A stretch of DNA of 63,588 bases, filler included. It is 7 parts of 7 records of this genome, joined end to end, with 100 filler letters (N's around TTAATTAATTAA, not from the genome) between each part and the next. Parts side by side here need not be neighbours in the genome. Positions count along the whole stretch, not along the records: positions 34,526 to 42,467 come from SRR31147125_6235; 6 more parts are not named here. One strand, written 5' to 3'. Of this stretch, positions 7,005 to 63,542 are shown one piece after another; the first letter of the stretch is position 1, and every line of letters begins with the position of its first letter. Position numbers and translations under genes: made by a program. The notes under the pieces are model-generated. The model was not told the origin of the DNA. It did no database searches and saw nothing but the letters and a program-made list of their open reading frames with translations.

Positions 7005-7662
7005 TTGAATAATTTAAAGGTTTCAATTATTATGCCTACTTTTATGCATGAAAAATTCATTCATAGAGCAATAGAAAGTGTACTTGCGCAAGAGTATAAG
7101 AATTGGGAATTAATAATTGTAAATGATGGTTCTTCTGATAATACAGAACAAATGGTATGTAAATATCAGAAGGAATGTAGAATAAAATATTATAGTAAAA
7201 AAAATGAAGGGGTTAGTAAAGCCAGAAATTATGCGATTGATAAAGCAACTGGAGAATATATTTCATATTTAGATTCAGATGATATTTATCTGCCAAATCA
7301 CTTAAAACAAAAAATAAACCAATTAGAAAGATCAAATTCTGATTTTGTTTATGGACCTATTTATATTGATAAAAAAGATAATAACTCAATATTTTATCCA
7401 AATTTTTCAAAATCAAAGGAGGGTTGTATAATGCCATTAATGGTTTTACATAAAAAAATGCTTTGATTTATCCAAGTTCAATCCAAATATACTATTTGAA
7501 GAAGATTTAGAGCTTTTTTTAAAATTTAAAAAAGAATTTAAAGTTACACAGGTTAATGAACCAACTGCAATATATAACATTCATAATTTATCAATTCATA
7601 AAATATATGAAAGAGAAGGTGAAGAAGGAGTTTTAAAATTCCGTTTAATGAATGCTAAATAA
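7005..7662 (+). CDS. Glycosyltransferase family 2, frameshifted at the A7 run 7452-7458
   Basis: Motifs VSIIMP, VNDGSSD, ARN and YLDSDD. Another frame continues CFDLSKFNPNILFEEDLELF...RLMNAK* to a stop at 7660-7662 that overlaps the next start. Confidence 0.85.
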
Positions 7663-8676
7663 TAAAAAATTCATGTTAAATTTGACTATCGAAGATATGT
7701 TATGTAATTTAGAATGTAAATACTGCTGGATTTCAGAATCTACTTTTAAAGTAAAAAGAATTGAAAACATAATAAAGAAAGGAGAAAGTGTTAATTATTC
7801 TATAGAATCACTTCTTAAAAAAATTGATCGAATTCTTTTGAACGAAGAAGCAACAGTTCTAAAATTATCTGGGGGAGAAATTTTTTTAATTCCAGAAATT
7901 TTTGATATCGTAAAAAAATATGAAGAGAAATTTAAATTAATTCAAATTTTAACTAATGGTACCTTGTTAAATAAAAAGATACTAGATTCTTTTGATAATG
8001 AAAAATATTGCTTTCAAATTTCATTAGATGGGGATAGTCTATTTCTTAATTCATATAGATTTGGTAAAAACAAGACTTTGCTAAGTAAATTACTAAACAA
8101 TATTGCCTATTTATATAGCAAAAATTACAATATTGAGATTAACTCAGTAGTAACACCAATTAATAAATTGGAAGTTTTTCAATTTATTAACAGATTTAAA
8201 AATCAATACCCTAAAATAACTATTTTACCATTTCCAGCAAGATTTACAAATGAAAAATACCTCATTAGAAATTTTTCAGAAAAGGAAAAAAGCAAAATAT
8301 TTTTAAATGAGCATACTAATATTCCTTATATAAAAGAAATGATTAAGTTAAAAAATGAAGGTATTAAAAATTACACTTGTTACCTAGATTTATTAATAAA
8401 AACTATTGATGAAAATGGTGATATATATTACTGTCCTTGTGGTAATATTAGTTATTTGGGAAATATTTTTTCGAAAGAAAAAAAGTATACGATGAAAAAG
8501 AAATTAAATCGAAAAAACTAGAAAAATGCAATAATTGTTTTACAAATTTTGATATAATAAATTTATTTTTTAATGATCTTATAGATTTTAAGGAATTAAA
8601 AAAAACTGGAATTTTTAAAAATAGAGAAGTTGCAGAAGAAATATTAAAACAAAAATATACTTTATTAAATATTTAG
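7652..8676 (+). CDS. Radical SAM protein with a Twitch/SPASM-like tail, frameshifted at the A7 run 8478-8484
   Basis: CNLECKYC, SGGE, TNG, SLDG and CYL..GDIYYCPC motifs. The shifted frame adds CNNCFTNFDIINLFF...LLNI*, with the stop at 8674-8676. Confidence 0.85.
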
Positions 8677-11013: not shown

Positions 11014-11113
11014 NNNNNNNNNNNNNNNNNNNNNNNNNNNNNNNNNNNNNNNNNNNNTTAATTAATTAANNNNNNNNNNNNNNNNNNNNNNNNNNNNNNN
11101 NNNNNNNNNNNNN
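11014..11113. other. Artificial contig linker
   Basis: N-run/TTAATTAATTAA/N-run, which gives stops in all six frames. Confidence 0.98.
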
Positions 11114-17663: not shown

Positions 17664-17763
17664 NNNNNNNNNNNNNNNNNNNNNNNNNNNNNNNNNNNNN
17701 NNNNNNNTTAATTAATTAANNNNNNNNNNNNNNNNNNNNNNNNNNNNNNNNNNNNNNNNNNNN
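17664..17763. other. Artificial contig linker
   Basis: N-run/TTAATTAATTAA/N-run. Confidence 0.98.
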
Positions 17764-27369: not shown

Positions 27370-27469
27370 NNNNNNNNNNNNNNNNNNNNNNNNNNNNNNN
27401 NNNNNNNNNNNNNTTAATTAATTAANNNNNNNNNNNNNNNNNNNNNNNNNNNNNNNNNNNNNNNNNNNN
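27370..27469. other. Artificial contig linker
   Basis: N-run/TTAATTAATTAA/N-run. Confidence 0.98.
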
Positions 27470-33170: not shown

Positions 33171-34213
33171 ATGGAAAAGATAAATATAACAGGCAAAACA
33201 ATAGACGAACTTGAAGCATTTGCAAAAGAGATCGGAGAGAAATCTTTTCGAGGGCGTCAACTATTCAATTGGATATACGTTAAAAAAGCGGCGCAATTTA
33301 CCGAAATGACAGATTTGTCAAAGGCGCTGCGTGAAAAGCTCCAAAACAGAGCTGATATCGGGTGTTTGCAGCTAGTAAAGAAAAATCCTCAGATGGCTCC
33401 TCATCGGCAAAATATATATTCCGATTACATGATGGCCATGTTATTGAAAGTGTTTATATTTCCGAATCAGGACGACGAACGCTATGCCTTTCATGCCAGG
33501 TTGGCTGTGCTTTAAAATGCGCATTTTGCGCTACCGGCCGTCTCGGATTGAAAAGAAATTTAAGCACAGGAGAAATTATCGATCAGGTTCTTTACATAGA
33601 GCGTGATATTGGGCATGAGTTAACAAATATCGTATTTATGGGAATGGGAGAACCTTTTAAAAATTATGATCATGTTATCAAAGCAGCGAACCTGATCAAG
33701 CATCCGGATGGTATTGCTATTGGCTACAGACGGATAGTTATATCAACAGCCGGAATCGTGCCGGCTATTTACCGTTTTGCGGATGAAGGACACCGTTTCA
33801 AGCTTGCAGTTTCATTACATTCGGCGGTGAATGAGGATCGGCAAAAGATTATGCCGATCAGTACAAAATATACCGTGGAAAAGCTTATCGAAGCGGTCAC
33901 ATATTACATTCAAAAATCGGGTCGTCGACCCACTTTTGAATATGTGATAATGGCTGGAGTGAATGATCGAATGCAAGATGCGGATGCGTTGCGAAAATTA
34001 GTCCGGGGGCTGGAATGTAAAGTGAACCTGATTCCGTACAATCCAACTGTGAGTGAATTTGATCGACCACGTCCTGAAAGTGTAGATCAATTTGCCAGAT
34101 GGCTTTTCCCGATTCGAGCGCCAGTTTCTGTTAGATGGAGTAAAGGCGTCGATATTGATGCTGCGTGTGGCCAATTAGCTGGCGACTATATGGAATCCGA
34201 AGCGATCTCCTGA
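33171..34213 (+). CDS. rlmN: 23S rRNA/tRNA m2A methyltransferase RlmN, frameshifted near 33378
   Basis: The N-terminal FRGRQLFNWIY ORF joins the second ORF carrying CLSCQVGCALKCAFCATG, FMGMGEP, SLH, NLIPYN and AACGQL. Confidence 0.92.
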
Positions 34214-34425: not shown

Positions 34426-34525
34426 NNNNNNNNNNNNNNNNNNNNNNNNNNNNNNNNNNNNNNNNNNNNTTAATTAATTAANNNNNNNNNNNNNNNNNNN
34501 NNNNNNNNNNNNNNNNNNNNNNNNN
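34426..34525. other. Artificial contig linker
   Basis: N-run/TTAATTAATTAA/N-run. Confidence 0.98.
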
Positions 34526-35151
34526 CCCTTTCCCTTAATATTTTCTTTTTTTGGATTTATTTGTGTTGAAATGTTGTCCCAAATAACAGAGTAGTCATTT
34601 GTTTCAAAATTTTTAGTAATTTCAATTCTAATGCCATCAATAAATTCATGTTCTTGTGTTTCTGCTGATATATTAAGTAAAATAGCTTTTGGAATTACTG
34701 TTTTTGAGAAAACGTTTGGCTCAGTTGGTGCTGTTGTACTAAGCTCTACCTTATAATCAAAAGAATAGATTAAATCCTTCATTAACCCATTGTCTATGTT
34801 AGGAATTAGATCTCTAACCAAAAGTTCCCAAGGATATGGGAACCTTTTATTTTGTGCATCATAAAAACTTTTTCGATTTAGATTAAAAGAGAATTCAAAA
34901 GTAATTGGCTTTTCAATATTACAATTATGTATGGTGTTAGAAAATGTACCCAAATGTAATATTCTACCATTCAATAATAAGGTTTGTTCTAAATTCCTAC
35001 TTTCAAGAGTCTGCTTCCATAACAACAAACTATGAAGCAAAGAGCTCTTTCCACTACTATTAGTACCACAAAATAGCGTAATCGGTTTAAGTAATATTTC
35101 ATCTGTATCAACAAAAGCTTTAAAGTTTTTTAATCTCATTTTTGTTTGCAT
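34526..35151 (-). CDS. AAA/ABC-type ATPase (DUF3696/AAA_15-like), 3'-truncated
   Basis: LKNFKAF followed by PITLFCGTNSSGKSS (Walker A) and LLLWKQT. Confidence 0.8.
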
Positions 35152-35618
35152 AACAAATCCCTTTTTTACAGGTATGCAAAAATAAATATATTTTCAATAT
35201 ATTTATTTTGCTTTACTCTTTTTTGCAATTAATTTACCATTTGTTCGCAATAAAGAATTTTAATTGGTATTATTTTTTATCCTTATCAATACATGTTGAT
35301 CTTCGGATTTCTGATCTAAAACTCCTAAAGAAACAGTTCGTGAACTAATAAATGATAACAACTACTCAATAATTCATTAAAAGAAAAAAGAGAAATACTT
35401 TTTGTTCTTAATTATCATTAACTTCAAGACTCATCAATAATTATATCATGTAAAAAAATATCGAGACAGTAAATATTTATAATTCTCCCCTGGTTTGATG
35501 GTATAATTAGTTTTTTTCCAAGTTCTCTATGATCATTTCCTAAATAACATACTGAAAGTTTGAAGCAACATTTTTGAGCATTGAATCAAAAATTGTTAAA
35601 TACTTAAAAAACAGTATA

Positions 35619-36752
35619 TTACTCAATCTCAAAAGTTCTTATGAAACCTTCTCTTATATTATTATAATCATAAAGAGTCATAGGAAGATCCGCCTTCGAT
35701 AATCTTGCTCTTCCTATCTCAATAGCAACGGAAACTGGCACAGCTGGAAATAAATGAATTCGAGATTTATCACTATTAATATACTTTATTTCACTAAGAG
35801 CTTTTTTATAAGTAATCCGAAAATCGTCTAATTGACCTTTGGTCTGTATTGCCTCACTATGTGGCTCTTCTAAACAAATTCCCCATATCGGAACATCAGG
35901 GCCTAATATTTCTTTTACTTTACTTTCTTCAATTTTTTGTGATAAGGAAATAACTAAGGCAACATCTTTACACACTTGCTTGTCTCTAGTAAGTATATAT
36001 TTATAATCTTGTTGCAGTGGCTTTCTCTTCCAATTCCAATTTGGAGGAGATCGATGTAGTTGATAGAGTTCTGCTGTCGGAATATCAGTTAACAAATAAC
36101 CAAGATAAATCAAAAGAGGTTGTGGGGCAAAACCAAAAATTGATAAATGGGGAACATTCCCATCTTTTAATTTGAATCTTAATTTTTGCTTATATAGAGC
36201 TTCAAGATTCTTCTTTTCAATTATCCAAAATTCTTCATTATCATCAGTAAAAGAGGAATTCTTAAGACTTAATTCAATTGCCTCAGTACTAGCTGGGTAG
36301 TAACCGTTCTCAGCTACTGCAAGTAGGGCTTTATCCATGCATAAGGAGGAACCTTGCATTCCTATATTGGCTCCATATAGCACAATATAGGTTTTCATAT
36401 TTTCTTTAATACCAGTAAGACATTCTATTCTATCCTCATGTTTTTTTTTATAATTTTGTAAAATTTCAACAGAATATTTATTTCTGTAGTCTCCATCAAT
36501 CAACCGATGATGTTGATCACAGAGTAACATCAGATTTTCATACTCTATTGCTTTTTCAGGAGAAAGAATATCATTTCCTCTTGGACCATTTGGGGAATCG
36601 GCAATAATGTGTCCTATATAAGATATATTATATTCATTTTTACTTAGCTCATCCCTGTATAAAATTTTATTACATCCAGGAAATTCACATCTTCCAGCAG
36701 TTTTAGCCCAAAGTCTCTTTTGGACTTTATCTGGTATATTTGATTTTGACAT
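35619..36752 (-). CDS. CBASS effector, HNH endonuclease-SAVED (Cap5-like)
   Basis: N-terminal GRCEFPGC..GHII..GPRG..NLMLLCDQHHRLID. C-terminal SAVED with FGFAPQPLLIYLG, LYQLHR, IHLFPAVPVS.AIEIG and LYDY. Confidence 0.9.
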   Translation of the reverse strand: MSKSNIPDKVQKRLWAKTAGRCEFPGCNKILYRDELSKNEYNISYIGHIIADSPNGPRGNDILSPEKAIEYENLMLLCDQHHRLIDGDYRNKYSVEILQNYKKKHEDRIECLTGIKENMKTYIVLYGANIGMQGSSLCMDKALLAVAENGYYPASTEAIELSLKNSSFTDDNEEFWIIEKKNLEALYKQKLRFKLKDGNVPHLSIFGFAPQPLLIYLGYLLTDIPTAELYQLHRSPPNWNWKRKPLQQDYKYILTRDKQVCKDVALVISLSQKIEESKVKEILGPDVPIWGICLEEPHSEAIQTKGQLDDFRITYKKALSEIKYINSDKSRIHLFPAVPVSVAIEIGRARLSKADLPMTLYDYNNIREGFIRTFEIE

Positions 36753-36763
36753 TTTGCCCTACT

Positions 36764-37351
36764 TTATCTTCTCTGAAAAATATTTAAGTGACATTTTTTA
36801 AATTTTTTTCCACTCCCACAAGGACAAGGATCGTTACGTTTTGCATCGTTCATTAAGTTTCTGATTTCCATCTCTTTTTCTATCAAGCCAAACTTATGCG
36901 AATACTCTCCCCATGGAGGTTTTTCCATAAATGTTACAAAATATGCCTGCCAAGCAAAGAATGAGACAACATATTCTAAAATGAATCGTTTAATAGTCAT
37001 GTTCTCAACTTCTCTTTTTGTAAAAATTCCAAGACAGCAAGTTATATCAGGATATATATGTAAATCCATTAAGTTAATTTGATTTTCCCACGCAAATTTT
37101 TGTATTTTCCCTCCGCTTTCAAATACCTTAGGTAATCCATTGGTATCTAAGTTGAAAAGCCTAATCTCTATCTCATAATATGCATGAAATACTTTTGGGT
37201 GTTTAGTATCATTTGGATTAAGTTGAAGTTTTTCTCCATCGTAAACTGCATAAAAAGACATCTCTCCAAGAATTTTTGTTTTATCCTGATTCATATAAAT
37301 ATCAGGGAAGTCCTTTTGAATCTCTTTGATGTCATTTTCAGATACTTTCAT
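36764..37351 (-). CDS. Prokaryotic E2 (Ub-conjugating-like) domain plus C-terminal SEC-C zinc motif; in frame with the CD-NTase in this sequence
   Basis: LPKVFESGGKI, HIYPDITCCLG (E2-like H...CL), PWGEYSH and RNDPCPCGSGKKFKKCH. It has its own ATG at 37351 with an upstream GGAG. Confidence 0.7.
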   Translation of the reverse strand: MKVSENDIKEIQKDFPDIYMNQDKTKILGEMSFYAVYDGEKLQLNPNDTKHPKVFHAYYEIEIRLFNLDTNGLPKVFESGGKIQKFAWENQINLMDLHIYPDITCCLGIFTKREVENMTIKRFILEYVVSFFAWQAYFVTFMEKPPWGEYSHKFGLIEKEMEIRNLMNDAKRNDPCPCGSGKKFKKCHLNIFQRR

Positions 37352-38299
37352 GCAATAATCAACTCCAGTAATATGGCTTTTTTGGCTTAATTTCATAACC
37401 ATAATTACCTTTTTTTCTTTTAACGTACCAAATTTTTCACCGAAAATCTTTCGCCATTTTCTAATGCTACTGTTGTGATCTTCATCAAAAAAAGCATCTT
37501 CAATCTTTCCATAATAGATTCTAATTTTGTCACGAAAATTGCTGTATTTTGTTTGATCCCAGTGTCGATTAAAGTTCTCTCCTGGCAATACAGGGTTAGT
37601 TATAATTGGCATCTCGGGATGATTTTGTAGAAACTTATTTAAAACTTGTGTGATATTAAGTAAAGAAGTTGGAATATCAACAAAATCCATCTTACTAAGA
37701 TCATCAACACATCTTCCAAGAAGTGTGGTAAGAAGAATAGACTTTACTGAAAAATTACCTTTGTGATCCCTCATGAACTTCATTAGTCTAGTCACTCTTT
37801 TTAGTTCCCCACCCGTACATGAAGTTTTATCACCTAACCACTGACGATATCCGGTACCATCCGTTCTTTCAAACCGATTCTCCTTTTGGTTACAAATAAA
37901 TATATCATCTCCTACTTCTATGCAGGGAACCAAATCTAAGTGAAAATCTCCTGCATAATCTAGAGTTATACACCGAGTTTTTCTTTTCACCATATGAGTA
38001 TAGTTTTGATTGCCTTTGAAAAAATCATATAAACCATTAATATAATCGACCGGATCCTTGTCATCATCTTTCACCAAATAAATAAGGATATCCGCATCAA
38101 ATTCATTATGCTCTTGTACTGGTTTAATTATTGTCTCCAATGCAAAGGAGCCTTGTTTTTCAACTTTTCTATAGCCAAAAAAACTGTCTTTAAGTAGGGA
38201 TTTGATAGAATTAATTTTCTCTTCCAAAATATTAATTCTTGATTGATTGAGATTGACCTCATTCATTAGAAATTGCTTAAAATCATTTATATGTTTCAT
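36764..38299 (-). CDS. cGAS/DncV-like nucleotidyltransferase (CD-NTase/SMODS); annotated as a 511-aa fusion with E2/SEC-C, or about 313 aa (37359-38299) in the -1 frame
   Basis: Motifs QGSFALETIIKP, EFDADIL, KTRCITLDY, FHLDLVP, RLMKFMRD, SILLTTL, NPVLPGENF and KWRKIFG. Confidence 0.9.
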   Translation of the reverse strand: MKHINDFKQFLMNEVNLNQSRINILEEKINSIKSLLKDSFFGYRKVEKQGSFALETIIKPVQEHNEFDADILIYLVKDDDKDPVDYINGLYDFFKGNQNYTHMVKRKTRCITLDYAGDFHLDLVPCIEVGDDIFICNQKENRFERTDGTGYRQWLGDKTSCTGGELKRVTRLMKFMRDHKGNFSVKSILLTTLLGRCVDDLSKMDFVDIPTSLLNITQVLNKFLQNHPEMPIITNPVLPGENFNRHWDQTKYSNFRDKIRIYYGKIEDAFFDEDHNSSIRKWRKIFGEKFGTLKEKKVIMVMKLSQKSHITGVDYCMKVSENDIKEIQKDFPDIYMNQDKTKILGEMSFYAVYDGEKLQLNPNDTKHPKVFHAYYEIEIRLFNLDTNGLPKVFESGGKIQKFAWENQINLMDLHIYPDITCCLGIFTKREVENMTIKRFILEYVVSFFAWQAYFVTFMEKPPWGEYSHKFGLIEKEMEIRNLMNDAKRNDPCPCGSGKKFKKCHLNIFQRR

Positions 38300-38484: not shown

Positions 38485-39420
38485 ATGTCAAATGAGATAG
38501 AAATAAAACAATTGAAGCAAACTAAAAAAAAGCGACTTGAATTTATAGATTCCCGATTATTTTGGGAAGGAAGAATTAGTCGAAAAGATTTGACTGAATA
38601 TTTTCATATTTCTGTTCCACAAGCTACAAATGACATCAAATTTTATAGTGAATTATACCCAAAAAACATTTCTTATATCAAAAGCTTAAAAGAACATAGA
38701 GCCACAGAACAGTTTGTACCAAAATTGATAATACCAACTAGTGATGATTATCGTAAACAATTATTAGTGCATTCAGTAAATGTAGAAGAGGTTTTTTACT
38801 ATGGAAAATATCCAACATTTTATAATTTTCACAATATTAATCGTCCTGTAGAGGCCGATATCTTAAAGAAAATCATAAAAGCTATAAATAATAAGCAATC
38901 AATAAATATCACCTATCATTCCATGGATAATGGTGAATTAAATCGGTGGATATCACCACAAGCTTTAGTCTATGACGGGTATCGTCTTCATGTACGAGCA
39001 TATTGTTATAGAAGAATAGCTTTTCGTGATTTCAACCTAGGCAGGATTGTCTCTATTGGGTCTCATGCATTCGAATCTATAGTCGATTTTAGCTATGATT
39101 ACTTATGGGAAACATTTTTTGAAGCTATTATTAAGCCTCACCCAGAATTATTAGACCATCAAAAACTTTGTATTGAGAAAGAATATAAAATGAAAAATAG
39201 TCAGCGAGCTATACCCATCCGAGCAGCATCTCTCTATTACTTTTATAGAAAATATGGCTTTGATATAACAGACTATCAAAGCTCAGATACAATTTCAGCA
39301 AAAAAGCAACAAATTGTTCTTATAAATAAAGATGAAATAGATCTTAAAAGAGAACTCCTTGAGCAATTGAGTATTGCTAAACTTAAAGAAATAAATTACT
39401 CAGTTCCATTTGATAAATAG
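38485..39420 (+). CDS. CapW/BrxR-like wHTH-WYL-WCX transcriptional regulator
   Basis: RLEFIDSRLFWEGRISRKDL..F.IS.PQA..D, then Y.SM, RWISPQAL, HVRAYC and FRDFNLGRI. Divergent from the CD-NTase. Confidence 0.88.
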   Translation: MSNEIEIKQLKQTKKKRLEFIDSRLFWEGRISRKDLTEYFHISVPQATNDIKFYSELYPKNISYIKSLKEHRATEQFVPKLIIPTSDDYRKQLLVHSVNVEEVFYYGKYPTFYNFHNINRPVEADILKKIIKAINNKQSINITYHSMDNGELNRWISPQALVYDGYRLHVRAYCYRRIAFRDFNLGRIVSIGSHAFESIVDFSYDYLWETFFEAIIKPHPELLDHQKLCIEKEYKMKNSQRAIPIRAASLYYFYRKYGFDITDYQSSDTISAKKQQIVLINKDEIDLKRELLEQLSIAKLKEINYSVPFDK

Positions 39421-39549: not shown

Positions 39550-40569
39550 TCAAACCCCACCAAACGCCTCCCGATAAGACCCCGGCGGAAGCCCCACTAT
39601 CTTCTTGAACACCCGGTTGAAGTAGTTGTAATCCCCAAACCCGACCGCCTGGAAAATCTGCTTAATCGGCATATCGGTCTCCCGCAGCAACCGCTGTCCC
39701 TCCTGAATCCTGACACTGTTCAGGTAGGTCGTGAAGTTGCTGCCGGTCACCTCTTTGAAAATCGAGCTGAAGTAGTTTGGGGAAAGATAGACCGCCCGCG
39801 CAACCTCGGAAAGAGAGAGGTTCTTGCGGTAATTCTTGCGAATGAACTCCTGAGCCCGCACAATCAGGCTGTTCTGCTGCTCCGTTGCGTTTGACGTGTT
39901 CCCTGACTGCAGCCCCGGATTGGCCAGACGAAAATCGACCTTATCCTGCAGAACCTTAATACTCAGCTGCTGCAGATCATTCTCGTATTTCAGGATCTCG
40001 CGCTCCTTCTTGTAAAGCTCCTCCTGCAGCGACAACTCATCCTCAACCGAAATAATATAGTTGGCCATCACGTTCAGCAGTCTGATACCCAGCAGGAAAT
40101 GCTCCTGGTCCAGCACCTTCACCTTGCGTAGACTCTGGATAAGCGCCTCCTGGTCCAGCTTAAGTGAACTCAGGTTCTCGTACAGATGCAGAAAATCATC
40201 CTTGGCCTGTTTCTGGGTAAAAATCTGACCCGTAAAAATAGCCCCGAGATAACGCCCCTTATAGAGCAGTGGAATAACGGCATTCGTCAGCCCCGCATGA
40301 CAGGTATAGATACAGTACTCCCCCGTCTCGCGCGCCCGCTGCAGCGCCTCCCGGTCACTCTTCAGACAGCGCACCAGCCCCTGCTTGTTGGACTGAATCG
40401 TCTCACAGTAGTAGTTTTTCTCATTTTTCGGATAAAAGTCGTACTCATCCTTGCCCGGATAGTGGAACGAGAGCGCAAGCCCCGTCGTCTTATAAAAAAT
40501 CTCCCGGATTTCATCCAGAATGGTCAGATCTTTCAGGGGATAGGTTGATGTCGATTCCTGCTCTTTCAT
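39550..40569 (-). CDS. PocR-sensor AraC family regulator
   Basis: PocR-like C..SD...Y.CHAGL...P...G....GQ; C-terminal AraC HTH (LSPNYFSSIFK, VGFGDYNYFNRVFKK). Confidence 0.9.
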   Translation of the reverse strand: MKEQESTSTYPLKDLTILDEIREIFYKTTGLALSFHYPGKDEYDFYPKNEKNYYCETIQSNKQGLVRCLKSDREALQRARETGEYCIYTCHAGLTNAVIPLLYKGRYLGAIFTGQIFTQKQAKDDFLHLYENLSSLKLDQEALIQSLRKVKVLDQEHFLLGIRLLNVMANYIISVEDELSLQEELYKKEREILKYENDLQQLSIKVLQDKVDFRLANPGLQSGNTSNATEQQNSLIVRAQEFIRKNYRKNLSLSEVARAVYLSPNYFSSIFKEVTGSNFTTYLNSVRIQEGQRLLRETDMPIKQIFQAVGFGDYNYFNRVFKKIVGLPPGSYREAFGGV

Positions 40570-40620
40570 ATCTCGATTCTACCCGATAACGTGCGTCCTG
40601 CAAAGAACGCGATGCTGGAA

Positions 40621-42429
40621 CTAGATAACACCTTCCGACCCGCTCAACTGCACCGTTTTCTTATCCACACCGCCGGGTGCGGCAGTATCATTACGGTAAA
40701 TCTGAACCTGCATGCCGGTCACATCACCCTTGGAACTGCTGAAACGATACTTCAGCCCACCGGAACCCGCTCCAGACCCGGTACCAGCATCAACCAGCTC
40801 CAGGCGACTCTGCATGCGCTGCTTCATGGCACTCATGGCATGGCTGAGGGGTACCTTGTCCAGAGTATAGCGCTCCATCAGGCGTTCGGTCTCCTGAAAC
40901 AGCTCCCTGATTTCACCGCTTCTTAAGCAGGCATAGCGCTGTTCGTGGGTTGCTCCCTCACCGTAGAAACCGGAATCCAGTCCACGTCGTAACTGGGCCG
41001 CCAGCGTGGCTGCCGATTCGGCAATCAGCGGTTCCCCATCATCAGTACCGGATTCACTCCAGAAGCAGGTATGGTTCCAGAGATAGTCGGTCTGCACCAC
41101 GTAATCGACCGTTTCCCGGTTCTTGTGGTCCAGAACACAATTGCAGACTATCATTCCCGGACACTCCGGTACTTCGGTAAAGACATACCCGGGATGGTCA
41201 AAGGGAGGTAACGGCGGTAATGGGTTCTTGACGGTGGGAACCTCAAACCAGGCCGCGTCGAAGGGCAGCAGATAGGTCAGAAACTCGATTCCTCTATCAC
41301 GATAGAACGGCAAAGCTCCGCTGCCGATCTCTCCGAAGTGGGGATGCGCCCAGGAGCTGTGCTTAATGCCCCAGTTTTTCTCGTACCAGTCCCAGCGCGC
41401 GAAACGCACCCGCAGTTCATCATCCCGCAACGGCCGCTGATCCAGATGGTTGAAACAGAAGGAGTCGTTGTAACGCAGCGCGTGGAAACCGATCTCCAGC
41501 ATGCCGTCGGACCAGCCCTGTTTCAACCGTTTGGCAGTTACATGAATATCCTCATGCGCCACTTCATCAATCGTATCGGTGAAGAGCGCGGTATAGGGCT
41601 TCCACCCATAATCATTCATAATATCGACATAACCGAAGTGGTCGTACGACCCCGAACAGTCATCAATCACCAGCCCGGCCATGGACGGCATACTCCAGGT
41701 CAGGAACGGCTTTCGGGCCGCCCAGACCATACTCTTCATGAACACATCATCCAACCCGCAGGCATGCCCAAGATTCTTCATATCATACAGATCGATGGCA
41801 AAGGGAAACAACACCAGTCGCCCGGCGCCGTTTTCGGCCGTAACCAGCAGGGAGTCGCCCTGTTCATTGCGTATAAGTGGTATATCAACCGGTGGTCTAT
41901 CAGCCGTCAGTTTGGCATACGGCATGGGAAGATCGCTCTTTACCGTCTCTCCCGCCTGACGTGTCCAGGTAATGAAATGCTCATTTGAATCGGTAATGAT
42001 CGATTGGAAAGACCCGGAAACAGCCGCGTCCTCCATGCTGAAAGGAGCCAGCCCCAGCAACGAGCGCAGCCAGCCGGGAATTGCATCCCCGGTTGGTTCA
42101 TAACAGATAATCCCAAGCCCCTCCTGAACCGCGTTCACGACACGACCGGAAAAATCTTCGGAAAACATCTCAAGTATCCCGCTCTGCGGCAGCAGCAGCG
42201 CCGCGCTCTGCAGCGCATCGTCGGAAGCCGCACCAGCCATCCAGTTGGGAGCCAGAACATCAACCTTGTAGGGAATACCGAAATGCGTCAGCGGCCTGAA
42301 CAATGTTTTATAGAGACTTTCAATCGCCGCGCGCGATCCGTCGCGCAGCAGCACCGTTATGGCACCGCGCCCTTCCGTTGAACCGTTCTGTACCGATTCG
42401 ACAATCGATGTCTGTTTCCTGGTTGTCAT
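40621..42429 (-). CDS. Hypothetical protein with an N-terminal GATase/trimerization-like region and a NodB/polysaccharide-deacetylase-like domain
   Basis: Long ORF with high-GC codon bias; VIDDCSG, EIGFHAL and HPHF are plausible metal ligands. Confidence 0.5.
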   Translation of the reverse strand: MTTRKQTSIVESVQNGSTEGRGAITVLLRDGSRAAIESLYKTLFRPLTHFGIPYKVDVLAPNWMAGAASDDALQSAALLLPQSGILEMFSEDFSGRVVNAVQEGLGIICYEPTGDAIPGWLRSLLGLAPFSMEDAAVSGSFQSIITDSNEHFITWTRQAGETVKSDLPMPYAKLTADRPPVDIPLIRNEQGDSLLVTAENGAGRLVLFPFAIDLYDMKNLGHACGLDDVFMKSMVWAARKPFLTWSMPSMAGLVIDDCSGSYDHFGYVDIMNDYGWKPYTALFTDTIDEVAHEDIHVTAKRLKQGWSDGMLEIGFHALRYNDSFCFNHLDQRPLRDDELRVRFARWDWYEKNWGIKHSSWAHPHFGEIGSGALPFYRDRGIEFLTYLLPFDAAWFEVPTVKNPLPPLPPFDHPGYVFTEVPECPGMIVCNCVLDHKNRETVDYVVQTDYLWNHTCFWSESGTDDGEPLIAESAATLAAQLRRGLDSGFYGEGATHEQRYACLRSGEIRELFQETERLMERYTLDKVPLSHAMSAMKQRMQSRLELVDAGTGSGAGSGGLKYRFSSSKGDVTGMQVQIYRNDTAAPGGVDKKTVQLSGSEGVI

Positions 42430-42467: not shown

Positions 42468-42567
42468 NNNNNNNNNNNNNNNNNNNNNNNNNNNNNNNNN
42501 NNNNNNNNNNNTTAATTAATTAANNNNNNNNNNNNNNNNNNNNNNNNNNNNNNNNNNNNNNNNNNNN
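42468..42567. other. Artificial contig linker
   Basis: N-run/TTAATTAATTAA/N-run. Confidence 0.98.
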
Positions 42568-51604: not shown

Positions 51605-52438
51605 ATGAAAAAGATAAGAGTTACCGTACCTGAAGATATCTACAGGCTAATGAAAAATGACATTGAGGATTTCGGTATAAACAATAACAAACTCTGTAAC
51701 TATATATTAGACAAATATAAATATGACAAAAAGAAAACTGACATTTTGAAAAGTCAGGGAAGACCTCTAAAAAAGATTATTCAATTTGATCTAAACGTTG
51801 CCAACAAAGAGATCTATTATGATATTCTGAGAGCAAATGGAATCGAAGTTGAAGCAGAGTTCTTTAGGGATCTATTCCAATTCTATTGCTCTAACTTCAA
51901 ATATGAAAGAGAACTTTTTGTATTTGAAATGATGGTTGAAAAAATCATGGATGCAATAAAAGATAAAAACAAAATAAAGATTAAATATAAAAAAGATACC
52001 TTTATAATAGAGCCTTATTTTATCAAACGTGGAGAACAGGGAGATGAAAACTACGTTTTCTGTTATTGCGAAAAGAGTAAAAAGTATAAAAACTATAAAT
52101 TGAAAAATATACAGTTTATTGCTGAACTAAATGACAAAGCTACCAGAAGAGATAAAAAATATGTTGAAAGTATCAGAAAAAACTTTGATCCATTTTTATC
52201 TAACGGACAAGAAGTAAAAGTAAAACTATCAAAAGACGGGGAACTTTTATTAAAAACACTAACAATACATAGACCGAAACAGTTAAGTAAAGAAAATGAT
52301 ATCTATACATTTGAAGCATCACAAGAGAAGGCATTTCTATATTTTAGACAGTTCCTGTCAGAAGCAATTATACTAGAACCTCTTGATTTAAGAGAAAAAA
52401 TGAAAACCGAACTATTAAAAACATTAGAAAATTATTAA
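51605..52438 (+). CDS. WYL domain protein with a putative RHH-like N-terminus
   Basis: AIKDKNKIKIKY, IEPY, YVFCY, NYKLKNI and C-terminal AIILEPLDLR. Confidence 0.75.
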   Translation: MKKIRVTVPEDIYRLMKNDIEDFGINNNKLCNYILDKYKYDKKKTDILKSQGRPLKKIIQFDLNVANKEIYYDILRANGIEVEAEFFRDLFQFYCSNFKYERELFVFEMMVEKIMDAIKDKNKIKIKYKKDTFIIEPYFIKRGEQGDENYVFCYCEKSKKYKNYKLKNIQFIAELNDKATRRDKKYVESIRKNFDPFLSNGQEVKVKLSKDGELLLKTLTIHRPKQLSKENDIYTFEASQEKAFLYFRQFLSEAIILEPLDLREKMKTELLKTLENY

Positions 52439-53944: not shown

Positions 53945-55938
53945 TTATAAATTACTCGCAAATTCGTAAGCATCCCATATAGCGTACATTATATTTGATA
54001 CTCTACTTGCATCTCCTAAAATATGAACGTTATGCAGATCATATTTTAATTTTTCATATAGTGTATTTTCTGATTCATAACCAACAGCTAATACAACAGA
54101 ATCAGTTTTAATCACTTGCTCTCCATCTTCTGTTTGAAGTACTAAGTTTTGCCCATCAAAGTCTTTTGCTGTAGACGCAGTGTATGTGGCAATATTATTA
54201 TGTGGAATAAGTGCTTCAAGCATCTCACTATTTGCATGGCAAAGAGGCCCGTTTATTTGTAGAATTTCTTCCATTCTCTCTATGATATTAACATTTTTAC
54301 CTTTTTGCTTTAACCAAAGTGCAAGTTCACAACCAACTAAACCTCCACCAATTACTGATACATCTTCTCCTACTTCCTTCTCTCCTAATAATACCTCTGC
54401 AGCTGTATAAACAGGTCCTGAGCCAATACTAAACACTTTTGGCTTTGAACCAGTTGCTAAGATTATCTCATCTGCGTCAGAGTTCTTCAGATCAGCTTCT
54501 GTAACAATAGTGTTCTTTTTAACCTCTACTCCCAGTCTATCTAACTCATACTCATACCAATCAGCTAATAGATGGTCATCCTCTTTGAAATCTGGTGTTC
54601 CCCCAGGTATTAGATTTCCACCTAGTTTATCAGTCTTTTCAAATAAAATAGGCTCATGTCCTCTTAGTTTTAGAACTCTAGCAGCCTCTGCTCCAGCTAC
54701 TCCTCCACCAACAATCATAACCTTTTTCTTTTCATATGCAGGGATTAATCTTTCACTTCTCTCTCTACACGCTTCTGGATTTACAGCACAGTTAAGAGCT
54801 GAATACTCTTGGATACGCCCCATACAACCCTCATGACATGATAAACAAGGTCTAACTGATTTATATCCATCTTTTTTAATTTGTTAACTAAATGTGCATC
54901 AGCAAGTAGTGGTCTTCCAAGAGAGATAATATCACACGCTCCCTCTTCTAGCGCACTAATGGCTAAGTCAGGGTTATCCATACGACCTGCACAGATTACA
55001 GGAACACTTACTACTTCCTTCATCATTTCACAGTAAGGGATGTATAATCCTTTCTTTTGATACATAGGCGGATGGTTCCACCACCAAGAGTCGTATGTCC
55101 CAACATCGACATCAAAAGCATCATAGCCATATTTTTCTAGAAGTTTTGCTGCTTCTAACCCTTCTTCGGTATCTTTCCCCATCTCTTCGAACTCTTCACC
55201 TGGAAGAGCTCCAACTCTCCAATCTTTTATGAAACTTTTTACACTATATCTTAGAGTTACAGGAAAATCATCCCCGCATCTTCTTTTTATCTCTTCTACT
55301 ACTTCTCTGGCAAATCTTAATCTATTCTCAAGACAACCACCATACTCATCAGTTCTCTGATTAAACATTGATATAGCAAATTGGTCTAACAGGTAACCTT
55401 CATGTACAGCATGAATTTGAACACCATCAAACCCACCTCTTTTTGCATTATATGCACCTTGACCAAACTGTCTAACTATCTCTTTGATTTCAGCAACAGT
55501 TAGTTCTCTACAAGTTTTATCTAACCATCTATGCTTTATTGGCGAAGGGGCAACTGGTGGATGTTCTCCTAAATTTGTAGGAATTGTTACACGGCCAAAA
55601 CCACCTGAAAGTTGTAAAAATATCTTTGAACCATAAGCATGAACTTTTTCAGTTAATTCTCTAGATGTTCTGATAAAATGAACACCATTATGAGTTGAAC
55701 AAGGTACATTTGGCATATCATGAGCCTCTATTTCATTATCTACAAATGTAACTCCTGTAAATATAAGACCTGTTCCGCCTCTTGCACGCTCTACGTAATA
55801 ATCAATACCACGCTGATTAAATCCACCTTCAACATCTCCCAGACCTAATGGTCCCATTGGTGCCATTGCAAATCTGTTTTTCAGTTTAACATTACCAATG
55901 TTATTATTCTCAAACAAAGGTTGGTACTTTTTTTCCAT
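53945..55938 (-). CDS. Multidomain old-yellow-enzyme, 2-enoate reductase-like; frameshifted at the T6 run 54872-54877
   Basis: Motifs APMG, HAVHEGYLLDQF and NQRTDEYGG. The shifted frame restores RPCLSCHEGC..CAVNP (Fe-S cluster), GGGVAG and GGGLVGCE. Confidence 0.88.
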
Positions 55939-56185: not shown

Positions 56186-56285
56186 NNNNNNNNNNNNNNN
56201 NNNNNNNNNNNNNNNNNNNNNNNNNNNNNTTAATTAATTAANNNNNNNNNNNNNNNNNNNNNNNNNNNNNNNNNNNNNNNNNNNN
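56186..56285. other. Artificial contig linker
   Basis: N-run/TTAATTAATTAA/N-run. Confidence 0.98.
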
Positions 56286-58197: not shown

Positions 58198-59088
58198 TCA
58201 CGTGACGAGGACAAGTGACATTAAAAAATCCAATGTCAAAATCAACAAACAGGACACAACAGCTGCATTTGTTGCAGCAGTCCCTACACCTTCTGCTCCC
58301 TTTTTTGCATTTAATCCCTGATAACAGGCAACTAATATGATCGTTCCACCAAATGCAATCGATTTGAATAAGGGTGAGGTAAAATCATGCAGTTCTGCGT
58401 AGAGTCGGAGTCCCTTTAAAAACTCATAAGTTGTGATGTCCGCTAATGTAATTGCTGTAAACCATCCGGAAAATAAACCAATAGCAGCGGCAAAAGCGGT
58501 CAGGATAGGTACCATAGTGATACCGGCAATAAATCTGGGAACGACCAGATAGGAAATAGGATTAAAAGCCATAGATTCCAGTGCATCGATTTGTTCCGTC
58601 ACCTTCATGGTACCAATTTCTGCTGCTATCGAAGCCCCGACACGTCCTGCCAATACCAGGGCTGTGATCACACCAGCGAGTTCCTGTAAAATGGCCTTTT
58701 CCACTACCGTTCCTGAAATATAGAGAGGAACTGTGCTGGTAAATTGTTTTACAGATTGTAAAGCTATAACCATACCGGTAAAAAGGGCAATGTAGGATAC
58801 AAGAGGAAGCGAACGAATACCAACCTTCATCATTTGATCAACGACATGACCCTTATAGGTCCTGAAATCTGAAAAAGCAATAAAAGTCCGCCATATCAAT
58901 AATCCAAAACTACCAACATGGTAAAAAAATTGTAAACAAATCGTACCTACTGACTTTGAAAAATGTAAAATCAGTTCTGTTAATTTTAGCTGATTTTTAT
59001 TATCGACATCTAAATTCTGCACGTATTCTTCTCGCATAAGTTTATTAGTTTCTAAACAATATAAGATGAACGTATAATCCGATATCAC
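58198..59088 (-). CDS. mlaE: MlaE family permease (start uncertain)
   Basis: Motifs GIRSLP, AGRVGASIAAEIGTMKVTEQIDAL and GAEGVG. Confidence 0.9.
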   Translation of the reverse strand: MISDYTFILYCLETNKLMREEYVQNLDVDNKNQLKLTELILHFSKSVGTICLQFFYHVGSFGLLIWRTFIAFSDFRTYKGHVVDQMMKVGIRSLPLVSYIALFTGMVIALQSVKQFTSTVPLYISGTVVEKAILQELAGVITALVLAGRVGASIAAEIGTMKVTEQIDALESMAFNPISYLVVPRFIAGITMVPILTAFAAAIGLFSGWFTAITLADITTYEFLKGLRLYAELHDFTSPLFKSIAFGGTIILVACYQGLNAKKGAEGVGTAATNAAVVSCLLILTLDFLMSLVLVT

Positions 59089-62682: not shown

Positions 62683-63542
62683 GTGATGAATCCTGTATTT
62701 CTATCTTCCGTACTAGCCCTTGGTGTATTAGGGCTCATTTTTGGAGCCGGATTGGCTTATGCAGCGAAAAAATTCGCTGTTGAAACAGATCCAAAAGTTG
62801 AACATATTATTGATCTTTTACCTGGCGCCAATTGTGGTGCATGCGGTCAACCGGGCTGCAGTGCATTTGCCGAAGCTGTTGTGGCTGGTCGTGTCCCTCC
62901 AACAGGTTGTATTCCCGGTGGAAAAGATGTCTCTGAAAAAATATCCGTCATCCTGGGAGTTACCGGTGTTGACGTCGAGGAACCCAAAGTAGCCGTTGTA
63001 CAATGTCAGGGTGGTAAGGAAGAAGCAAAAGAAAAATTTATTTATGAAGGCATTCAGGATTGTAATGCTGCCGAGCTCGTAAGCGGTGGCCCTAAAGCTT
63101 GTAAATATGGTTGTTTGGGATTTGGTTCCTGTGTCAAGGCATGTCCTTTTGATGCTATGTACATGAACGACAATGGATTACCCGTTGTCAATGAAGATAA
63201 ATGCACGGGGTGTGGTGTTTGTGTTTTAACCTGCCCGCGAGACATTATGAAACTTTTACCCAAGAGTCAAAAGTTTATCTTGGGTGCGTATCAAAAGACA
63301 AAACAAAAGCAGTTAAATCCGTTTGTAAAGTGGGTTGCTTTGCATGTAAAATGTGTGCCAATCCTAAAGTGACACCATCAGGTGCCATACAGATGGATGG
63401 AAATCTACCTGTAATCCAGGATATTCAGTCAGATGAATTATTCAAAGCATATGATAAATGTCCTGCTAATTGCTATGTGATTCGTGGTGAGAGGCCGGAA
63501 ATTGAAGAGATAACCAGTGAACAGGATGCGAAAAGCGCATAA
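62683..63542 (+). CDS. rnfB: RnfB-family electron transport ferredoxin, frameshifted near 63270
   Basis: TM anchor; LPGANCGACGQPGC, CKYGCLGFGSCVKACP and CTGCGVCVLTCP. The second frame adds CKVGCFACKMC..KCP. Confidence 0.88.

Follow-up and report, generated by a model that had tools for sequence, protein, structure and literature searches.

Most probably, the 511-aa ORF that appears to join a CD-NTase to an E2 protein in the stretch of DNA analyzed here (63,588 nucleotides, hereinafter the window) represents an ordinary E2-type CBASS operon, with a CapW-like regulator, a cyclase, an E2 and a Cap5-like effector, in which a run of eight A (A8) has been miscalled as seven (A7). The apparent fusion is most likely an assembly error given the homology of the tail encoded in the -1 frame to the natural tails of free cyclases, the two-gene organization of the close relatives, and the presence of five other frame breaks in the window. 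We infer that the missing base lies within the A run and that it was lost through an error of sequencing or assembly rather than through a real mutation.

Residues 1 to approximately 300 of the 511-aa ORF comprise the CD-NTase (SMODS, E 2.7e-29, with an additional match to the DncV-like NTase), and the ORF also matches the PADLOC cyclase model PDLC00793 (E 1.8e-115). In agreement with the CD-NTase pattern GS...DxD...D, residues G50, S51, D68, D70 and D122 of the cyclase, which we take to be the catalytic residues, are invariant in the alignments. Residues 320-508 match the PADLOC E2 models, the best of which is PDLC00872 (E 5.7e-24), and the last 20 residues form a SEC-C zinc motif. When read in the -1 frame from position 37409, the sequence encodes GNYGYEIKPKKPYYWS followed by the stop codon TGA (37359-37361). 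The ATG of the E2 gene is located 7 nt past this stop and 11 nt downstream of a GGAG sequence (37363-37366), and a stem made of TATGGTT (37397-37403) and AGCCATA (37372-37378) begins 5 nt past the heptamer. The read-through on the minus strand, the A run with its codons and in-phase heptamer, the -1 frame tail with its stop, the GGAG and start codon of the E2 gene, and the stem had all been described in a sequence-only reading of this DNA, and each was recovered at the same position (Table 1). The frame change is bounded by KFGTLKE and EIKPKKP, that is, by positions 37394-37423 roughly, and the A7 run (site 37409..37416) is the likely place of one lost A, the true length being A8.

Table 1. 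Features of the CBASS locus and frame breaks in conserved genes of the window
Feature	Position	Strand	Remarks
WYL regulator (CapW-like)	38485..39420	plus	divergent, upstream
Promoter-like site	38418-38390	minus	
CD-NTase (SMODS) read through into E2/SEC-C, as assembled	36764..38299	minus	511-aa ORF
A7 run	37410-37416	minus	codons gaa aaa aag gta
In-phase heptamer A_AAA_AAG (gaA_AAA_AAG)	37409-37415	minus	
-1 frame tail GNYGYEIKPKKPYYWS + TGA	37359..37409	minus	homologous, by its sequence, to the motif P-x-[KR]-P-[YHFW] conserved in cyclase tails
E2/SEC-C gene	36764..37351	minus	195 aa, own ATG at 37351
HNH-SAVED effector (Cap5-like)	35619..36752	minus	377 aa, intact, downstream in operon
GT2 glycosyltransferase break (gene 7005-7466)	A7 run 7452-7458	plus	fixed by two added bases or one removed
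Radical SAM gene break (gene 7652-8521)	in-phase A_AAA_AAG 8479-8485	plus	fixed by one added base
rlmN split	A5 run 33381-33385	plus	fixed by one added base
FMN/FAD oxidoreductase (BaiCD/FadH-like) split	in-phase ttA_AAA_AAG 54871-54877	minus	fixed by one added base
rnfB split	within cccaagag (C3 or A2 run), ~63259-63266	plus	one base missing

Judged from its motif content, the -1 tail is the real tail of the cyclase. The homolog set employed here consists of the best 120 of 2183 protein matches (E <= 0.001, out of 3097 candidates) obtained with residues 1-300 of the cyclase as the query. Among these best 120 matches, 115 are free cyclases of 310-342 aa, with C-termini such as ...TPRKPHSVGW and ...TPRKPYAR, and five are fusions of 516-545 aa that also contain SEC-C. 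Of the 115 free homologs among the best 120 matches, 76 have the pattern P.[KR]P[YHFW] in their last 16 residues, compared to a background of 19 among the 52,988 16-mers without a stop that were taken from all six frames of the window; the less restrictive [KR]P[YHFW] is found in the same region of 91 of these 115 proteins. The motif count was used together with this six-frame background; a whole-protein HMM could not score a 16-aa tail alone. The -1 tail contains the motif (KPKKPYY), and the frame-0 linker VIMVMKLSQKSHITGVDYC is devoid of it. With an HMM built from the 115 free cyclases, frame 0 aligned only up to position 300 of 316. The suggestion of the sequence-only reading that the -1 tail resembles a natural CD-NTase tail is thus borne out by the frequency of the motif. 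The spacing between the -1 stop and the E2 start, 7 nt in the window vs. 6 nt in the closest loci, is similar as well, and the E2 N-terminus, MKVSENDI in the window, reads (V/M)KVT.EEI in the closest loci. Given the tail motif and the stop-to-E2 spacing shared with the relatives, the two-gene layout is intact in the window but for one base.

For comparison, 159 loci were collected from contigs of genomes (79) and of metagenomes (80). An E2 homolog is encoded downstream of the cyclase in 91 of them, as a separate gene in 74 and within a single ORF in 17; there is no E2 match in the remaining 68 loci, many of which are short contigs or represent other system types. Cyclase-E2 fusions occur naturally in this cyclase family and have been published before; the accessible part of PMC12948482 cites Burroughs et al. 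2015 for natural CD-NTase-E2 fusions. The natural fusion ORFs identified here are 493-574 aa long and encode an N-terminal cyclase and a C-terminal E2/SEC-C, and all 17 keep a tail motif in frame, followed by a linker of 10-25 aa and then by the E2. As read by eye, the tail of 14 of these fusions has the form [KR]P[YW], and the other three show a Q-Y-A or G-P-Y-A variant.

A quick maximum-likelihood tree was built from 82 rows, which represent the window along with 14 distinct fusions and 67 loci with separate genes; duplicates, loci that lack an E2, and short or stop-containing cyclase matches were excluded. In this tree, the fusions fall into four clusters (8, 3, 2 and 1). The window belongs to a clade (SH-aLRT 99) shared with five separate-gene loci, and the sister pair of this clade, which includes a Spirochaetales MAG, has separate genes too. 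In each of the eight closest loci, the tail is in frame and the E2 is encoded by a separate gene; the equivalent codons read GTIIQNNS and the like, and in none of the eight is there a run of A or a slippery heptamer at this place.

Besides the cyclase, the frame is broken in five conserved genes among the about 50 ORFs, and in four of these the break falls on a run of at least five A. The impression of the sequence-only reading that the other genes look intact, accordingly, does not hold across the window, where rlmN, the oxidoreductase, the radical SAM gene, the GT2 gene and rnfB are all affected. The homologs of the GT2 glycosyltransferase (217-225 aa) read ...PLMVMHKRxCL..FEEDL.., and the window holds the conserved C-terminal part in another frame (7459-7659). 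The match between the radical SAM protein and its homologs of 356-361 aa ends at residue ~275, and a -1 frame of 63 codons (8485-8673) aligns with the conserved C-terminus of the homologs, KCxxCFTHFDxINLF...GIF. Pfam yielded no match for the continuation of either the GT2 or the radical SAM gene, and both cases were settled by the homolog alignments. In rlmN, positions 5-74 of TIGR00048 are matched by ORF 33171-33515 and positions 73-348 by ORF 33362-34213, and an intact relative (347 aa, 91% identical) reads ...CLQLLKKKTSDGSSS... / KKKTSDGSSS across the break. A break at GGG (33360-33362) was also considered for this gene and was ruled out because the same relative places it at the A5 run. 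In the BaiCD/FadH-like oxidoreductase, positions 1-334 of NF041087 are matched by ORF 54781-55938 and positions 355-641 by ORF 53945-54823, and the -1 frame reads DGYKSVRPCLSCHEGCMGRI... over 308 codons. Finally, positions 3-207 and 180-240 of NF005503 are found in two overlapping ORFs of rnfB.

With the cyclase included, the breaks in the 63.6 kb number six. A runs of 5-7 are the site of five, and adding exactly one base repairs five; in all six, the downstream frame is undecayed and conserved. The preponderance of A runs among the breaks is itself unremarkable because the coding strand of the ORFs contains 374 runs of at least five A and 151 such runs of T.

The recoding option raised in the sequence-only reading would mean that the A7 run is real and that a programmed -1 frameshift, here considered as one of the dnaX/IS911 type, operates on it, such that frame 0 gives the cyclase-E2 fusion and slippage gives a free cyclase with the natural tail. 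This appears highly improbable, and there is just as little to suggest that slippage on A_AAA_AAG would make a minority of free cyclase with an E2-recognition tail, with recoding setting the ratio of free to E2-fused cyclase. An X_XXY_YYZ heptamer is indeed present in phase, A_AAA_AAG is an efficient bacterial slippery site, and the -1 product would end at a natural stop with the conserved tail. However, the elements that usually accompany such a site are missing: the hairpin that follows the heptamer (-9.3 kcal/mol) is no better than those of shuffled sequences (mean -9.42, z 0.05, with 101 of the 200 shuffles folding equally well), no frameshift element was matched in Rfam, no SD-like element was seen by eye within 20 nt upstream of the heptamer, and conservation of the site together with both frames was found in none of the eight closest loci, all of which lack the heptamer. 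The phase of the heptamer does not help either. If a single A were lost from AAA AAA Gnn (two Lys codons and then a codon starting with G), an in-phase A_AAA_AAG would result automatically; the phase, a by-product of such a loss, is therefore no independent evidence for recoding. Furthermore, AAAAAAG is present in 81 copies in the window, compared to 57.2 +/- 7.1 in shuffles, and 44 of the copies lie in sense orientation within the 50 main ORFs; inside the window ORFs, there are 10 in-phase A_AAA_AAG heptamers, and three of these coincide with breaks (in the cyclase, the oxidoreductase and the radical SAM gene). Another in-phase heptamer, at 58306, was examined as a potential frame break, having an open -1 frame of 58 codons, and was rejected, given that MlaE is complete in frame 0. 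The configuration found in the cyclase is identical to those that break the oxidoreductase and the radical SAM gene, where a toggle makes no sense, and the rlmN, GT2 and rnfB breaks are located away from heptamers, so that an error in the length of A runs explains all six breaks and heptamer slippage only three. The frame-0 fusion, moreover, would lack the motif that is kept by the natural fusions.

A real, recent deletion of one base, in the organism or in part of the population, would result in a defective CBASS or in a new fusion allele without the tail motif, slipped-strand on/off variation included. Homopolymers mutate in vivo too, and cyclase-E2 fusions are natural, accounting for 17 of the 91 E2 loci and for five of the best 120 protein matches, and arose several times, as indicated by the four clusters in the tree; the read-through frame in the window is open and its E2 part is intact. 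Nevertheless, this scenario seems unlikely: the window fusion drops the motif that is retained, in one form or another, in all 17 natural fusions, and there is no decay in the -1 tail, in its stop or in the distance to the E2, so that any mutation would have to be very recent. Because five other conserved genes show similar breaks with undecayed frames, a technical cause is simpler than six recent mutations.

Under the preferred reading, an A8 read as A7, the operon would be a type II 'short' CBASS that consists of a divergently transcribed CapW-like regulator, a CD-NTase of ~313 aa, an E2/SEC-C of 195 aa and an HNH-SAVED nuclease. The native cyclase most likely ends with ...EKKGNYGYEIKPKKPYYWS and a stop, and the E2 would be encoded by a separate gene that starts 7 nt past the cyclase stop. 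The assembly would have dropped one A from the A8 run, leaving A7, and this loss would move the cyclase into the E2 frame, which happens to be open for 19 codons, to produce a 511-aa pseudo-fusion. The open frame leading into the E2 is a modest coincidence that counts against an error, given that 15% of shuffled 57-nt sequences stay open and that the frame of the E2 must fit as well; loss of one base would fuse seven of the 69 distinct separate-gene loci. This coincidence weighs little since the finding was selected for being a fusion. One public run shares 0.12 of the locus words; its 151-nt unitigs, with a depth of 2-5, are identical to the window at 35398-35627, 37556-38112 and 38513-38845, with no indel among them, and none of those listed spans 37410-37416. 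Of the three options put forward in the sequence-only reading, namely, recoding, a real fusion allele and the deletion of one A, the last one is favored, whereas recoding is left with neither a conserved heptamer nor a stimulatory structure.

The locus is an E2-type CBASS operon. It encodes a CD-NTase, a stand-alone protein of the E2 fold and a cyclic-nucleotide-sensing effector, the set that defines this type (type II short), and there is no match to an E1 or JAB among the neighbors examined. The HNH-SAVED protein matches PDLC00739 (E 9.8e-138, residues 1-377 on positions 3-376 of 378) as well as 7rwk_A (E 1.5e-78), and the WYL regulator is closest to CapW structures (7tb5_A, E 5.4e-43; 9c5g_A is named 'CapW'). 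In the E2, C105/C106, H152 and the SEC-C cysteines C176, C178 and C187 are invariant, and H98 is nearly invariant. In the VIA comparison, the E2 model built from an alignment of 30 relatives (pLDDT 92.3) is closest to E2 chains from the CdnG-E2 complex of S. marcescens, with a Z of 8.8 for 8yjy_B (125 aligned residues at an rmsd of 3.1 A) and of 8.5 for 8hsb_B; UFC1 comes next (Z 7.8). A Foldseek search with this model retrieved nothing at E <= 0.001, the top rows being UFC1-type E2s; the sequence search of the PDB with the E2 profile yielded SEC-C peptides only and no E2, and the only Pfam match in the E2 protein is the SEC-C motif.

According to the accessible parts of PMC12948482 and 10.1101/2022.05.25.493364, the E2 of the S. 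marcescens system is both a cysteine protease and a ligase, which trims the C-terminus of the cyclase after a conserved glycine and binds it covalently; for E2-CBASS, these sources agree with the sequence-only reading, in which the C-terminus of the cyclase is the target of the E2. The S. marcescens precedent suggests that the E2 encoded here would likewise act on the cyclase tail. No conserved glycine is found at or near the C-terminus of this cyclase, and the -1 tail in the window ends in S. The last residue of the 115 free homologs among the best 120 matches is R in 58, W in 24, Q in eight, D in seven, K in five and G in two. It can also be observed that the E2/SEC-C subfamily is characterized by short cyclases that mostly end in R or W after P-x-[KR]-P-[YHFW], and that a form of this motif is retained in the natural fusions.

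Taken together, the evidence points to an assembly indel and not to a recoding toggle. If a switch between the fused and the free cyclase did exist, it would provide CBASS with its first example of a switch based on recoding and would bear on the priming of the cyclase by the E2. With a frame error at A runs about every 10 kb, the fusions, split genes and slippery sites of this window need to be checked against the reads first. More generally, caution is due with claims of slippery sites, given that a one-A loss in the AAA AAA Gnn context would always create a textbook heptamer in phase.

The -1 sites of the dnaX/IS911 type share with the window the in-phase A_AAA_AAG; unlike these sites, the window shows no hairpin above the shuffles, no conservation in relatives and no Rfam match, and the pattern recurs at two plainly broken enzyme genes. 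Both the natural fusions and the window present one ORF with an N-terminal cyclase and a C-terminal E2/SEC-C. However, the natural fusions keep the tail motif and the 10-25 aa linker and form their own clades, whereas the fusion in the window loses the motif via a frame change upstream of it and sits in a separate-gene clade. The accessible part of PMC9262707 documents indels in homopolymers as an error of long-read assemblies, and the frame breaks in the window, six in 63.6 kb with five at A runs, resemble such long-read or low-coverage errors, a likeness by pattern only. With the S. marcescens CdnG-E2 system, the operon shares a CD-NTase, a stand-alone E2 and a SAVED-domain effector. The cyclase is shorter (about 313 aa vs. 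about 400 aa in SmCdnG) and resembles SmCdnG by sequence only over the N-terminal half (8hsb_A, query 11-159), the tails of its family end mostly in R or W rather than in the conserved Gly of SmCdnG, the E2 carries a C-terminal SEC-C zinc motif, unlike that of S. marcescens, and the effector is an HNH-SAVED nuclease in place of the 2TM-SAVED protein.

Besides the cyclase, five conserved genes in the window have a broken reading frame (see the table). Four of these five breaks fall in A runs of 5–7, and in four of the five the addition of a single base restores the frame, the exception being the glycosyltransferase GT2 gene; the indel rate in the assembled window seems to be about 1 per 10 kb. 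The masked stretches consist of 44-base N runs that form six pairs, with 12 bases between the members of each pair and 528 N in total. At 40000–42000, the G+C content is 0.53–0.54 vs ~0.3 in the surroundings; the 602-aa ORF within this stretch has no Pfam match. The G+C-rich stretch may represent foreign DNA or an assembly join.

Features of the window, with positions along the whole stretch
Feature	Position	Remark
GT2	7452-7458	frame break; two bases added or one removed
Radical SAM gene	8479-8485	frame break; one base added
rlmN	33381-33385	frame break; one base added
BaiCD/FadH-like oxidoreductase	54871-54877	frame break; one base added
rnfB	63259-63266	frame break; one base added
AAA ATPase	34474-35151	AAA_15; PADLOC matches NsnB, AriA, AbiL-like; adjoins CBASS effector
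WYL protein 1	38485-39420	CapW-like; divergent from CBASS operon
WYL protein 2	51605-52438	weak WYL score (E 9.5e-6); 13 kb away
PocR/AraC regulator	39550-40569	adjoins G+C-rich stretch
602-aa ORF	40621-42429	within G+C-rich stretch
N-run pairs	11014-11113, 17664-17763, 27370-27469, 34426-34525, 42468-42567, 56186-56285	masked

The window encodes two WYL-domain proteins, one of them next to the CBASS operon. Given that the AAA ATPase gene adjoins that of the CBASS effector, a small defence island is suggested; the C-terminal part of this ATPase enters a masked N stretch. The relatives of RlmN (33171–34213) come, by source name, mostly from candidate division KSB1, Calditrichaeota or the FCB group, whereas the nearest named kin of the CBASS genes are Spirochaetota MAGs, a difference consistent with the defence locus having spread horizontally.

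Cyclase and E2/SEC-C are naturally fused in a single ORF of 493–574 aa in 17 of the fetched homologous loci (L031, L035, L046, L054, L055, L058, L059, L061, L062, L064, L068, L078, L094, L095, L099, L102 and L103). These fusions form four clusters in the cyclase tree and originate from MAGs of Chloroflexota, Rhodothermota, Thermodesulfobacteriota and Pseudomonadota, suggesting at least two independent fusion events. Some of the relatives' loci are themselves interrupted, with an early stop in the L083 cyclase and shortened E2 ORFs in L003 (147 aa) and L067 (114 aa).

The cyclases of the E2/SEC-C subfamily are short, 310–342 aa (homologs P0003–P0122, the best protein matches to the cyclase; loci L001–L103). 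The free cyclases mostly end in R (58/115) or W (24/115), following a P-x-[KR]-P-[YHFW] motif. Because the 17 natural fusions keep a form of this motif ahead of the linker, it may be the recognition or cleavage site of E2. In contrast to the E2-CBASS cyclase of S. marcescens, for which a conserved C-terminal glycine has been described, only two of the 115 subfamily cyclases have this residue at the C-terminus.
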